This document shows positions 15,824-58,451 of a stretch of DNA of 64,000 nt, one piece after another. The translations under genes and the position numbers were made by a program. Origin of the DNA: Escherichia coli (GTDB lineage: Bacteria > Pseudomonadota > Gammaproteobacteria > Enterobacterales > Enterobacteriaceae). How positions within the stretch are numbered: the first letter of the stretch is position 1; each line of letters starts with the position of its first letter. The notes under the pieces are model-generated. The model ran no database searches and had not been told where the DNA came from. It saw nothing but the letters and a program-made list of their open reading frames with translations. Location: assembly GCF_003334765.1 (NCBI RefSeq), contig NZ_QOWT01000003.1, one strand, 5' to 3'.

Positions 15824-16029
15824 AAAAAAAAGCACCGCAATTAGGCGGTGCTACATTAATCACTATGGACAGACAGGGTAAATGTACAGGAAGTGAAAAA
15901 AGGTAGCTTTGCTACCATGGTCTGAATCGCAGACCAATTGCAAACACAACAACACAACATCACAACCGTAAGCCAAAAGTTCACCAGAACACGCATTCCG
16001 ATAAAACTTTTCGTTCCGGCTCAGGAAGT
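15824..16029 (-). ncRNA. gcvB: GcvB small regulatory RNA (Hfq-dependent, regulates amino-acid transporters)
   Basis: Reverse complement reads ACTTCCTGAGCCGGAACGAAAAG...GCACCGCCTAATTGCGGTGCTTTTTTT, the 206-nt GcvB sequence with GU-rich R1 region and intrinsic terminator; divergent from gcvA. Confidence 0.92.
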
Positions 16030-29206: not shown

Positions 29207-30496
29207 TTAGCTGAACAGAGAGTAGAAGATTGCGGAGATTGCAATCAGACCCATCACGACAACGAATACGTTGCTGATGTGACCGCTGTACTTACGCATT
29301 GCCGGTACTTTCTGAATTGCGTACATCGGCATCAGGAACAGGATCATCGCGATGATTGGACCGCCCAGGGTTTCAATCATACCCAGGATGCTCGGGTTCA
29401 GGGTGGCAACAATCCAGGTCGTTACCAGCATGAACAGCGCAGTGATACGGTTCAGCTTGTTGATTTCGATAGACTTACCTTTACCACGCAGAGATTTAAT
29501 CACCATACCGTTGAAGCCTTCACGTGCGCCCAGGTAGTGACCGAGGAAGGATTTGGTGATAGCGATAATCGCGATAATCGGAGCCATCCACGCGATAACC
29601 GGTGCGTTAAAGTGGTTAGCCAGGTAAGACAGAATCGAGATGTTCTGCTCTTTAGCCGCAGCCAGGTCTGCCGGAGTCAGGCTCAGTACACAGCTGAAGA
29701 CGAAGAACATTACGGTCAGCACCATCATGATGTGTGCGAATGCCAGGATCTTCGAGCATTTCTGTTCTGCCATATCGCCGTACTCTTCACGCTTCGCAAC
29801 GGCGAAAGAAGAGATGATCGGAGAGTGGTTGAACGAGAACACCATTACCGGAATTGCCAGCCACAGGGTCATCCACAGACCGTTTCCGGTTGCAGATGCA
29901 GTGTCCAGAGACAGCGTTTCCAGTGCAGCGCCGTTCCACTGCGGGATCAGGTACAGAGCCAGCAGCATCAGTACGCCAACAAACGGGAATACCAGAATAC
30001 TCATCGCTTTAACGATCATCTGCTCACCGAAGCGAACGATGGTCATCATACCCACGATCAGGATCAGCGACAGAATCGCACGCGGCGGTGGCGTCATACC
30101 CAGCTGGTGAGACATGAAGCTTTCAACGGTATTGGTGATTGCCACGCTATAAACCAGCAGGATCGGGTAGATAGCGAAGAAGTAGAGCAGGGTAATCAGT
30201 TTACCTGCGCCAATACCAAAGTGTTCTTCTACAACCTCGGTGATGTCTTCGCCCGGGTTTTTACCAGACAGTACGAAGCGAGTCAGGCCGCGGTGAGCAA
30301 AAAACGTCATCGGGAACGCAAGGATAGCCATGATGATCAGCGGGATCATACCGCCAACACCGGCGTTGATTGGCAGGAACAGCACGCCCGCGCCGATTGC
30401 CGTGCCGTAAAGGCCCAGCATCCACATGGTGTCTGTCTTGCGCCAGGCACTACGAGAGTCTTTCGACGCAATCGTGCTGGTTTGAGTCGTTTCCAT
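29207..30496 (-). CDS. sdaC: Serine:H+ symporter (HAAAP family)
   Basis: 429-aa polytopic membrane ORF recognised as SdaC. Confidence 0.95.
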
Positions 30497-31052
30497 CTAT
30501 TTCTCCTGGAGGAATGCAAATAATTCAGCTTTTAGCCAGTTCAGCCCGGGAAGGTGCCTGACCGTAAAAATGAAATCTGTCTATCGGCGATGGCTTAATC
30601 ATTTACCGCCGTAATAATTTGAGGGCGGAAAGATACACACAAGTTATGTATCTATCAGTGATCTTGATCTCAAATACAATAATCTACTTGGAAGATAGAT
30701 TATCCCAACGCTTTACTCTGTAAATCAAAAGTAAAAGAGAATTTAAGGGCAATATTTGCCCATTAAACGACATCTGACTTCTTCCGGGGCGCGCAATATA
30801 TGTAGGTTGAACTGAAAAAATCAATACTTTTAGTTAATCATGGCGATAATTTCTTTTTCATAGCGATAAAATACGGTTTATGAAAATAGGGAAACGTTTG
30901 CGTTGCAACATAAATTGTATGACATATTAACTGTGATGATATTTGTCGCGTGAGGGTGGTAAGAAACATTCATATAACAAATGAAATGAGTTGATGAGTA
31001 AGTGACCAAAAACGAGAAAACCCGGCAACAAACGTCACCGGGGGAGCGGAGA

Positions 31053-32417
31053 TTACGTGCAGATTTCGTAGCAAGGGATGTAGGCTGAGCCTGGCAACTT
31101 CATACGATGCTGGGCAACAAAACCCTGTAGCAGGTCGTCCATACGACGCATAATCTCTTTATCGCCGTTGATTTTGTAAGGACCAAACTCTTCAATGGCG
31201 CGAATACCGACTTCTTTTACGTTACCCGCCACAATACCGGAGAACGCACGGCGCAGGTCGGCAGCCAGCACTTCAACAGGTTGATCCGGGTAAAGCTTCA
31301 GATTAGCCATATTCTCGTGAGACGGCTCAAACGGCATTTGCAAATCTGGCGCAATGCGCATTGACCAGTTAAAGCTGTAGGCATCGCCTGTATCACGGCG
31401 ATTTTCTTTCACCAGCGGCATCGATTTTTTCATCTGACGAGCGACTTCAGCTGCGTCATCAATGATGATGCGGTAATGGCGGCGCGCGTTTTCACCCAGC
31501 GTATGCACGACAAACTCGTCCAGTACGCGGAAGTAGTCGGCGCTCTCTTTCGGGCCGGTGAGGATCAATGGTAAAACCTGATCTTTGTTGGCCGGGTTCA
31601 TTAAAATTCCCAGCAAATAGAGCAACTCTTCTGCCGTACCCACACCGCCAGGGAAGATAATGATACCGTGAGCGATACGGACAAACGCTTCCAGACGTTT
31701 TTCGATATCTGGCATGATGATCAATTCGTTGACCAGCGGGTTAGGCGGTTCAGCGGCGATAATCGACGGCTCTGTCATACCAATAAAACGACTGTCTTTG
31801 TAACGCTGCTGCGCGTGTCCGACCGCAGCACCTTTCATCGGCGCTTCCATCGCTCCCGGACCACAGCCGGTGCAGATATTCAGCTCACGCAGGCCCAGCT
31901 GGTTTCCGACGCGACGGGCATACAAATACTCGTTTTCGTTAATTGAGTGACCGCCCCAGCAGACCACCATATTTGGCGCTTCACCCACATGCAGCGCGCG
32001 AGCGTTACGCAAGATGGAAAAGACCAGGTTAGTGATGTGGACGGAGTTGTCGAGATTCAGGTTGGGAAAACGAACGGTGTTATGGATTTGCCCGTAAACG
32101 AAGAGAATGTCACGCAGGACCGCGAACAAGTTGGCCTGCAAAGCGCGAATAATTCGCCCATCGACAAAAGCCTCTTCCGGGGGATTAATCAGTTCCAGCT
32201 TTACGCCGCGTTCACGGCGCAAGACGTTAATATCGAAATTTTCAAAACGAGACAGCAATTCTTTGCTGTTATCGGTCAAACTACCGGAGTTCAGTACGGC
32301 AAGTGAACAGTTGCGAAACAGTTGATAGAGGTCGCTGCTGGCGGTGCGTTTAAGCATATCCACTTCCAGCTGCGACAACATATCCATGGAGCCAAGCGGG
32401 CTAATATGTGTAATCAA
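31053..32417 (-). CDS. ppnN: Pyrimidine/purine nucleotide 5'-monophosphate nucleosidase (LOG-like)
   Basis: 454-aa ORF recognised as PpnN (YgdH); downstream hairpin plus T-run on the minus strand at about 31008-31045. Confidence 0.9.
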
Positions 32418-32528
32418 GAAAAACTCCTTATGGGACGAATATCGTCATTCCCTTTGATTACAATAGCCCTGCCTGATGACCTTTCACAACCTTCTGCGTG
32501 AATCCAGCACGCAAAATTGAGAAAAAAT

Positions 32529-34200: not shown

Positions 34201-34569
34201 GTCGACAGGGAGTCAGACAACGAAGTGAACATCAGGATGATGACACTTCTGCAGGACACACCAGGATGGTGTTTCAGGGAAAGGCTTCTGGATGAAGCGA
34301 AGAGGATGACGCAGGACGCGTTAAAGGACACCTCCAGGATGGAGAATGAGAACCGGTCAGGATGATTCGGTGGGTCAGGAAGGCCAGGGACACTTCAGGA
34401 TGAAGTATCACATCGGGGTGGTGTGAGCAGGAAGCAATAGTTCAGGATGAACGATTGGCCGCAAGGCCAGAGGAAAAGTTGTCAAGGATGAGCAGGGAGC
34501 AACAAAAGTAGCTGGAATGCTGCGAAACGAACCGGGAGCGCTGTGAATACAGTGCTCCCTTTTTTTATT
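34201..34569 (+). ncRNA. csrB: CsrB sRNA, CsrA-sequestering decoy
   Basis: About 369 nt beginning GTCGACAGGGAGTCAGACAACGAAG with roughly 18-22 GGA motifs, mostly CAGGA(U/A)G in predicted loops; ends in hairpin GGGAGCGCTGTGAATACAGTGCTCCC plus T7. Confidence 0.93.
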
Positions 34570-53978: not shown

Positions 53979-54099
53979 TTAAACATTTATAAGCGTTATA
54001 AATGGGTGGAACCTGTAAAGACTTCTACTCATTTATATTGTTTGTCGCCTCTGAAAACTCCTCCATTTTACCCATCCAGGGCTAATCATTAGCATTCTC

Positions 54100-54317
54100 T
54101 ACAAATTCTGTGGCATTAATTTTTCGCTGGAGTGAAAATTATTGCGGTAAAGTTTGGTAGATTTTAGTTTGTATAGAGTTATTTTAAATATTTACCTTTT
54201 TAATCAATGGATTAAGTGCTCTTTAACATAATGGATGTGTTGTTTGTGTGATACTATAAAGTTGGTAGATTGTGACTGGCTTAAAAAATCATTAATTAAT
54301 AATAGGTTATGTTTAGA
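54100..54317 (+). promoter_or_regulatory. AT-rich CRISPR leader (promoter-containing) directly upstream of the first repeat
   Basis: AT-rich tract ending ...CTGGCTTAAAAAATCATTAATTAATAATAGGTTATGTTTAGA immediately before repeat 1; upstream boundary approximate. Confidence 0.7.
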
Positions 54318-54712
54318 GTGTTCCCCGCGCCAGCGGGGATAAACCGGCAAAAACCGGGCAATCGCAAAAAGGCGTAATGTGTTCCCCGCGCCAGCGGGGA
54401 TAAACCTGTGTTTGCGGCATTAACGCTCACCAGCATTTCGTGTTCCCCGCGCCAGCGGGGATAAACCGACGTGGTCATGGGTGCTGCTGTTGCAGAGCCA
54501 GTGTTCCCCGCGCCAGCGGGGATAAACCGAGCAGATACACGGCTTTGTATTCCGTGCGCCCGTGTTCCCCGCGCCAGCGGGGATAAACCGAATAGCAATA
54601 GTCCATAGATTTGCGAAAACAGGTGTTCCCCGCGCCAGCGGGGATAAACCGGAGCCTGACGAGACTACTGAGGCCGTTCTGTCGAGTTCCCCGCGCCAGC
54701 GGGGATAAACCA
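54318..54712 (+). CRISPR. Type I-E CRISPR array, 7 repeats and 6 spacers of 32 bp, leader-proximal end at 54318
   Basis: 29-bp repeat GTGTTCCCCGCGCCAGCGGGGATAAACCG at 54318, 54379, 54440, 54501, 54562, 54623 and 54684 with 61-bp period; repeat 2 ends CCT; terminal repeat is degenerate (GAG...ACCA). Confidence 0.96.
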
Positions 54713-55166
54713 CCATATAACCCGTTATCTCTTTCTCAAGTTTTTATATTAGCAGTACTTGTAATAAGCAACATATCCACGTAACACCTCATGTTCAAAA
54801 TAGTTCTCCATGCCAGAGAGGTTCACAATTATCGATACAAAAAATTAAATTTAATCAAAGTGTTATTTGTATGATTCTTAAATCGTTAAGAAATTTTAAT
54901 CTATTATTTTTTTAATATTGAATTAATGCCTGTTAATTTTTTCTTTAGAATAACAGTATATTTTTTAAGCTTGTTATTCATTGGTTAAGTAATAAATCTG
55001 GAAGTTTGTCTTTGTTTTGAGGCTAATGAGTGGTTTTACATAACCGCCTCTATACGCTGTTGATGAATAGTTCTTATGAATAAAGATATCCAGTTCATAC
55101 TTTAAGTGAAAATTGATAAAGTGCGATTCGTATTGTCTTTTATTCTAAAGACATCGAGTGTAGTTA

Positions 55167-55304
55167 ATATTCCTTGTAAAAACAGGGATAAACCGAACTA
55201 GTTAAAGTTTTTATTATGTTCCCTGCATCAGCGGGGATAAACCGGACTTGTTATCATTTTTTAAGTTGTCGAACTTATGTTCCCCGCGTCAGCGGGGATA
55301 ACCA
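55167..55304 (+). CRISPR. Degenerate I-E mini-array: 2 recognisable repeats, 1 clean 32-bp spacer, 1 eroded repeat
   Basis: ATGTTCCCTGCATCAGCGGGGATAAACCG (55216-55244), spacer GACTTGTTATCATTTTTTAAGTTGTCGAACTT (55245-55276), ATGTTCCCCGCGTCAGCGGGGATAACC (55277-55303); eroded repeat ending GGGATAAACCG at about 55195. Confidence 0.75.
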
Positions 55305-55350
55305 TTCAGGTATGTTCAGGCCGGGCAGTTTCCCGCCCGGCCTTCCTCAC

Positions 55351-58133: not shown

Positions 58134-58311
58134 ATCGTATTCCCATTTGTAATAGACAAAAAAAAGAGAAAAGTAAGCCGCCCTTTCAGGTGGATTACTT
58201 TTCTCAGGTCTCTAGTAATTGAAATAATAAATAACATGGAAAGCAGAGGTGTTGTGTGAGAGTAATCACGCTTCTGCTTTTTAAAATTATTTGACAATAC
58301 GAATATCACAC

Positions 58312-58327
58312 TGTGATTACGATCACA
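58312..58327. promoter_or_regulatory. Consensus CRP site in the yqcE/ygcW divergent region
   Basis: TGTGA-TTACGA-TCACA, a perfect match to both CRP half-sites, overlapped by a second palindrome TCACACTGTGA; TTGACA at 58291-58296. Confidence 0.6.
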
Positions 58328-58380
58328 TTAGCAGTTATGCCCTTATGCTAAAAATTATCTCCAGTTACCAGAGATAATGA

Positions 58381-58427
58381 GAAAGGTAACTTCCCTCTCG
58401 CGGGGGAAGTTACCTTTCTTTTTTTTT
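58381..58427 (+). terminator. Intrinsic-terminator-like hairpin about 25 nt upstream of the ygcW start codon (possible attenuator or leader structure)
   Basis: Perfect 15-bp stem GAAAGGTAACTTCCC / GGGAAGTTACCTTTC with 8-nt loop, followed by 9 consecutive T. Confidence 0.6.
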
Positions 58428-58451
58428 GCCTTACGGAAATTGGAGCTAACT

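Follow-up and report, generated by a model that had tools for sequence, protein, structure and literature searches.

The long gap between ppnN and sdaC in Escherichia coli as probable non-coding control DNA of the sdaCB operon

Introduction

Class II CRP-dependent promoters such as galP1, the PUR boxes of the purine regulon and Hfq-dependent repression at ribosome-binding sites are the described systems closest to the DNA upstream of the sdaCB operon. Classical PUR boxes are mostly found at, or close to, the promoter that they serve.

The region upstream of sdaC is itself already known as a published sdaCB control region. CRP control of sdaC has been reported (Hollands 2007, via PMC10882989). 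An IPOD-HR study mapped two YieP activator sites upstream of sdaC and notes that EcoCyc lists a repressive Lrp site, with the YieP peak ca. 200 bp upstream of it (PMC8282354). In the small-RNA literature that we found, sdaC appears solely as a target of ArcZ and OmrA. Here, we bring published transcript ends, binding data and mutations together with a conservation analysis of the gap between ppnN and sdaC and compare the resulting arrangement with the systems named above.

Results

The analysed window is a stretch of 64,000 nucleotides of E. coli DNA (contig NZ_QOWT01000003.1), in which sdaC (29207-30496, ATG at 30494-30496) and ppnN (31053-32417, TAA at 31053-31055) are both encoded on the minus strand. 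Positions are those of the window unless marked as K-12 positions, which refer to NC_000913.3 and are obtained as 2958725 minus the window position. A preliminary description, made from the sequence alone, had reported an AT-rich space of 556 bp between the two genes that is much longer than most others in the window. This is in full agreement with our measurements: the sdaC start codon and the ppnN stop codon delimit a gap of exactly 556 bp (30497-31052), which ranks second in length among 46 annotated gaps (median 68 bp) and has a GC content of 37.9% compared with 50.7% for the whole window. The sole longer gap, between ygcE and queE (53979-55350, 1372 bp, 40% GC), has no feature listed in the NC_000913.3 annotation. 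The ppnN-sdaC gap is 100% identical to that of E. coli K-12 strains, and the window is K-12-like. A search of 5426 complete E. coli genomes found the gap in every one, with at least 80% of it present in all but five of them. The curated K-12 record NC_000913.3 holds no annotation between ppnN (end 2927672) and sdaC (start 2928229).

For the conservation analysis, one genome per species was scanned, which gave 80 loci from Enterobacteriaceae that encode a close relative of SdaC. In 76 of the 80, ppnN lies directly upstream of sdaC with gaps of 436-648 bp. Since both the arrangement and the gap length are kept in these loci, the long gap is an ancestral trait of the locus. Alignment of the gaps showed that the terminator-proximal part varies, that a block at 30700-30595 is nearly invariant and that smaller conserved islands occur elsewhere. 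The nearly invariant block contains an Lrp-like box AGTAGATTATTG(T/C)A, a CRP-like motif TGAGA-N6-TCACT and GTGTATCTTTCC, within which TATCTT is found. The preliminary description had proposed a comparison with other enterobacterial sdaC upstream regions; in this comparison the block with the CRP motif and the -10 element is kept and is the best conserved portion of the gap across Enterobacteriaceae, while the candidate open reading frames are not kept. Separately, in one E. coli locus (L085; strain 23AR0151, NZ_CP195448.1) an IS903B element stands where the 5' end of sdaC, its leader and the proximal promoter would be, and sdaC of this strain is annotated as a pseudogene.

The upstream end of the gap is occupied by the intrinsic terminator of ppnN (31006-31042, minus strand). 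The terminator scan returned a stem-loop, CCCGGTGAC-GTTT-GTTGCCGGG (31042-31021), with a 9-bp stem containing 6 GC pairs and followed by the T tract TTTTCTCGTT. Published Term-seq data place a 'primary' 3' end of ygdH/ppnN at K-12 position 2927709 (PMC7815308), which corresponds to 31016, 5 nt past the stem, and the structure qualifies as an intrinsic terminator. A b2795-b2796 transcript is listed in the SMRT-Cappable-seq data, starting at the ppnN promoter (window position 32454, K-12 position 2926271) and extending through 30496; therefore, some transcription reads through the ppnN terminator into sdaC.

Downstream of the terminator, two YieP sites reported in PMC8282354 could be located on the minus strand. 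Site 1, ATTTGTTATATGAAT, lies at 30968-30982 and was subjected to reporter mutagenesis in that study, and site 2, ATATGTCATACAATT, lies at 30913-30927 and sits at a peak of IPOD-HR and ChIP-exo occupancy. They are followed by a 16-bp PurR operator, ACGCAAACGTTTCCCT (30888-30903, minus strand), identified by motif match and by ChIP-chip. The box has one mismatch to ACGCAAACGTTTKCNT and is the sole such site within the 64-kb window; most of the 76 loci have a counterpart ca. 386-413 nt before the ATG. A PurR-bound ChIP-chip region was assigned to sdaC-sdaB by Cho 2011 with the motif AGGGAAACGTTTGCGT, which reads on the opposite strand, and with log2 enrichments of 2.08 with and 0.83 without adenine; Table 1 is the only place where that paper names sdaC (PMC3159470).

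Several short palindromes had been noted in the preliminary description, among them one near 30905. They are present, but not enriched: the gap contains two perfect 8-mers, GTTGCAAC and AAACGTTT, compared with 2.56 +/- 1.6 in shuffled sequences. The first (30902-30909, not strand-specific) is flanked by YieP site 2 and the PurR box, shares 2 nt with the latter and is poorly conserved between genera. The second forms the core of the PurR operator. An inverted-repeat search also returned the perfect, E. coli-specific palindrome GGGCAA-ATA-TTGCCC (30747-30761, not strand-specific), whose aligned position in other genera is taken by a well conserved TAGCCTACGCGCCC. We considered this palindrome, GGGCAAATATTGCCC, as an operator or terminator and rejected both, as its left arm is broken already in E. 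whittamii and no 3' end is located there. Further, two 12-nt direct repeats, TTATCGC(T/C)ATGA (30838-30849 and 30858-30869, minus strand), were found by repeat search, at a distance of exactly 20 bp, in the stretch that separates the PurR box from the distal promoter described below. They are partly conserved and could, judged by sequence, be bound by a regulator; in a pull-down with bait DNA spanning this stretch, UlaR was recovered (PMC8282354).

The geometry of the nearly invariant block predicted a transcription start near 30623. The SMRT-Cappable-seq operon table then gave exactly this position, which rests on that one dataset: a start at K-12 position 2928102 (window position 30623, minus strand) is listed in the supplement of PMC6131387 for the transcripts b2796 and b2796-b2797-b2798, i.e. 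for sdaC and for sdaC-sdaB-ygdG. The hexamer TATCTT occupies 30630-30635 (-12 to -7, minus strand) and serves as the -10 element of the main sdaCB promoter. The CRP-like site TGAGA-TCAAGA-TCACT (30657-30672, minus strand), recognized by sequence match and spacing, has its centre at 30664.5 (K-12 position 2928060.5), exactly -41.5 from the mapped start, and matches TGTGA-N6-TCACA at 8 of 10 core positions. CRP-like motifs with two mismatches occur 28 times in the window versus 26.6 expected, and because the bare motif count is not above chance, the case for CRP depends on position and conservation. In 60 of 74 loci, the site lies at this same 41.5-bp spacing from the predicted start. Based on this geometry and its conservation, we infer that the main sdaCB promoter is a class II CRP-dependent sigma-70 promoter. 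Elsewhere in the window, a perfect CRP consensus, TGTGATTACGATCACA, is found at 58312-58327 in the ygcW-yqcE gap (58134-58451), along with a one-mismatch site at 58255-58270.

Directly adjoining the CRP site is a box resembling the Lrp consensus, AAGTAGATTATTGTA (30675-30689, -52 to -66, minus strand). It is the sole match in the gap to YAGHAWATTWTDCTR at up to three mismatches, a count that is not above chance, and it is strongly conserved in the gap alignment. Consensus match and conservation suggest that it is an Lrp site. The mapped start and the CRP-like site at -41.5, together with the CRP and Lrp control reported in the literature, bear out the preliminary assignment of the gap as the CRP- and Lrp-controlled promoter of sdaCB. 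The same description had also taken the gap to be the sdaCB leader. A leader exists, but it measures 127 nt rather than 556; of the remainder, ca. 390 bp are upstream regulatory DNA (YieP sites, PurR operator, distal promoter) plus the ppnN terminator and not leader.

The promoter scan found its best sigma-70 consensus match in the gap further upstream on the minus strand (30795-30824). This distal promoter combines a -35 element TTGATT (30824-30819), an 18-nt spacer and a -10 element TATATT (30800-30795), with an implied start near 30788. Two suppressor insertions of cya mutants map to its -10 element, +A at K-12 position 2927924 (30801) and +ATT at K-12 position 2927928 (30797) (PMC8546631 supplement; PMC10882989), which marks it as a hotspot of activating insertions in this background. 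The authors of PMC10882989 accordingly annotate the sdaC -10 box here, while in their words no sdaC promoter has been experimentally verified. Were the distal promoter the principal one, the leader would be ca. 290 nt long and the CRP/-10 block would lie inside the transcript. The consensus match and the promoter-up insertions both favor such a reading. However, capped full-length reads begin at 30623, ca. 165 bp downstream of the implied distal start, and the SMRT-Cappable-seq table lists no start near 30788. The suppressor mutants were selected without cAMP, where CRP is inactive, a condition that favors a CRP-independent upstream promoter. Further, the distal hexamers are poorly conserved outside Escherichia, in contrast to the proximal block and its 41.5-bp geometry, which hardly vary. 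We thus regard the distal promoter as an improbable principal promoter of sdaC. Because of the position of the capped reads, the poor conservation of the hexamers and the selection without cAMP, it appears to be a separate, weak or conditional promoter that normally plays a minor role, and probably one that needs no CRP and comes into use when CRP is inactive. The principal promoter would accordingly be the class II promoter at 30623.

The 127-nt sdaC leader (30497-30623, minus strand) extends from the mapped start to the start codon. Its 3' end contains the Shine-Dalgarno sequence GGAG (30506-30503) and the published ArcZ pairing site, which covers -13 to -2 relative to the start codon (30498-30509, minus strand; Papenfort 2009, via PMC11331407). 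By eye, the ArcZ segment 5'-UUUC/CCUGG is complementary to CCAGG(A)GAAA at -13 to -4, and the block around this site, TTCCTCCAGGAGA, is conserved in the gap alignment. Overexpression of ArcZ in E. coli lowers sdaC mRNA (PMC7213987). Since shuffled leaders give duplex energies with the ArcZ seed that are at least as good as that of the real leader, the ArcZ assignment rests on the published experiments. For the R1 region of GcvB, the predicted pairing energy with the sdaC leader was worse than with shuffled leaders. The window itself encodes the small RNA genes csrB (34201-34569, plus strand) and gcvB (15824-16029, minus strand), as mapped from K-12 coordinates.

The leader as a whole shows no excess folding stability (z = +0.28 versus shuffles), and RNAalifold on the leader alignment predicted 3 pairs at -0.63 kcal/mol and thus no consensus structure. 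These two results speak against a riboswitch or a structured cis-regulatory leader; only a short local hairpin covaries. In the E. coli minimum free energy fold, this tentative stem-loop consists of CGGCGGU, a 13-nt loop and AUCGCCG (+13 to +39; 30585-30611, minus strand). In other genera (loci L005-L081), stems of 4-9 bp enclose an A-rich loop of ca. 20 nt at ca. +8 to +45. The arms differ in sequence, with CGGCGGU/AUCGCCG in E. coli, AUUGCGGU/GCCGCAAU in Kosakonia, ACGGGC/GCCCGU in Cedecea and GUAACG/CGUUAC in Pseudescherichia. When the helix was laid on the alignment, 70% of cells were paired compared with 21-51% in slid controls, and compensatory changes were seen in 4 of 5 pairs. Among 28 genus representatives, complementarity of the arms against shuffled 3' arms gave a mean z of -1.82, with 82% of values below -1. 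The helix was read off the same sequences that were used for its test, and these sequences are mutually related, so we treat the stem-loop as tentative. A different hairpin, the 5'-most CCGCC...GGCGG, appeared in folds begun upstream of +1 and was rejected for E. coli, as its 5' arm precedes the mapped start. The stem-loop matched no Rfam family, and we found no mention of it in the literature on sdaC. It is the only feature of the gap that may be undescribed. That the element (+8 to +45, 4-9 bp stem, ca. 20-nt A-rich loop) is a functional RNA structure is, on comparative sequence evidence, possible although we lean against it. Its loop might, for instance, be bound by the distal face of Hfq, which would aid repression of sdaCB by ArcZ and other small RNAs; alternatively, the element might influence mRNA stability.

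A gap of this size, the preliminary description had cautioned, could hold an unannotated small RNA or small open reading frame. In case of a small RNA, the transcript could stem from its own gene, arise by premature termination within the leader, or extend from the distal promoter to the palindrome found in E. coli (30761-30747) and the T-rich run beyond it. The length of the gap would accommodate such a gene, the distal promoter is plausible and is followed ca. 30 nt on by a 6-bp GC-rich hairpin with a T-rich stretch, and the leader stem-loop has complementary arms in many genera. The published transcript ends, however, yield only the sdaC start and the ppnN 3' end. Term-seq shows no 3' end between K-12 positions 2927709 (31016) and 2928350 (30375, already inside sdaC; PMC7815308), and 30623 is the only sdaC start in the gap in the SMRT-Cappable-seq operon table, both results being valid for the growth conditions of those studies. 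The terminator scan of the gap returned the ppnN terminator alone, and a permissive Rfam scan gave best matches with E > 1, far under the gathering thresholds. Neither the palindrome nor the distal promoter is conserved outside E. coli, and no small RNA in the gap is given in the curated K-12 record or was found in our literature search. A hidden small RNA is therefore highly improbable. The Term-seq 3' end at 30375 lies 121 nt into the sdaC coding sequence, and a second internal one is located at K-12 position 2928864 (29861); these ends could reflect pausing, processing or premature termination.

Equally far-fetched, in our estimate, is a translated small open reading frame or regulatory leader peptide. 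The sense strand does contain a 25-codon frame (ATG at 30602), which lies entirely within the mapped leader, and a 29-codon frame (ATG at 30773) preceded by GGAAGAAG. Yet no frame is conserved on either strand. Of 73 non-Escherichia loci, 3 keep the ATG at 30602 and 1 has a frame of similar length, and GGCGG ends just 3 nt before this ATG, a poor Shine-Dalgarno spacing. The ATG at 30773 is kept in 21 of the 73 loci and its frame lies upstream of the mapped start at 30623, while a longer, TTG-initiated frame containing it (30824) has a counterpart of similar length in none. Plus-strand frames are kept in at most one of the 73 loci, save one that overlaps the sdaC start.

Discussion

Taken together, we consider it very likely that the gap is non-coding DNA made up of the sdaCB control region and the end of the ppnN transcript, and that it holds no independent gene. 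Public data directly support the start site, the 3' end at the terminator, binding of PurR and YieP, the promoter-up insertions and repression by ArcZ. In the mechanism we propose, ppnN transcripts would mostly end at the intrinsic terminator (3' end at 31016), with some readthrough into sdaC. The following ca. 390 bp of AT-rich DNA would bear the two YieP activator sites, the PurR operator and the weak distal sigma-70 promoter. The main promoter would be of the class II CRP-dependent type, with CRP at -41.5, the TATCTT -10 element, the start at 30623 and an Lrp-like box abutting the CRP site, and its 127-nt leader would be under post-transcriptional control through ArcZ pairing over the Shine-Dalgarno sequence.

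Signals for carbon (CRP), amino acids (Lrp) and purines (PurR), along with YieP and ArcZ, would thus converge on serine catabolism. The start at K-12 position 2928102 and the class II geometry point to a separate distal promoter, which alters the interpretation of the cya suppressor mutants: the '-10 box' mutated in them (PMC10882989) would belong to this separate promoter, ca. 165-170 bp upstream of the start at 30623. The leader stem-loop is a cheap, testable candidate for a post-transcriptional element. Beyond a tidier annotation the finding matters little, although the region illustrates well how densely a promoter can be wired.

Compared with class II CRP-dependent promoters such as galP1, the sdaC promoter has the expected TGAGA/TCACT half-sites centred 41.5 bp before its start, a recognisable -10 element (TATCTT) and no good -35 element, as expected where CRP occupies that position. 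The operon is likewise catabolic and its expression is reported to be cAMP-CRP-dependent. It differs from them in that the CRP site is off consensus at one position per half and adjoins an Lrp-like box, and in that YieP and PurR sites are present far upstream. The PurR box resembles the PUR boxes of the purine regulon (ACGCAAACGTTTTCNT, purF, purEK) in its 16-bp length, its central CG and one perfect half-site, in its in vivo occupancy by PurR, which adenine increases, and in a position that is conserved across genera, some species keeping the left half perfect and others the right. In contrast to those boxes, it lies ca. 270 bp upstream of the sdaC start and is known there as a binding site only. 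Finally, repression of sdaC by ArcZ resembles other cases of Hfq-dependent repression at the ribosome-binding site, as the stretch complementary to the ArcZ seed (-13 to -4) covers the Shine-Dalgarno sequence and falls within a conserved block.
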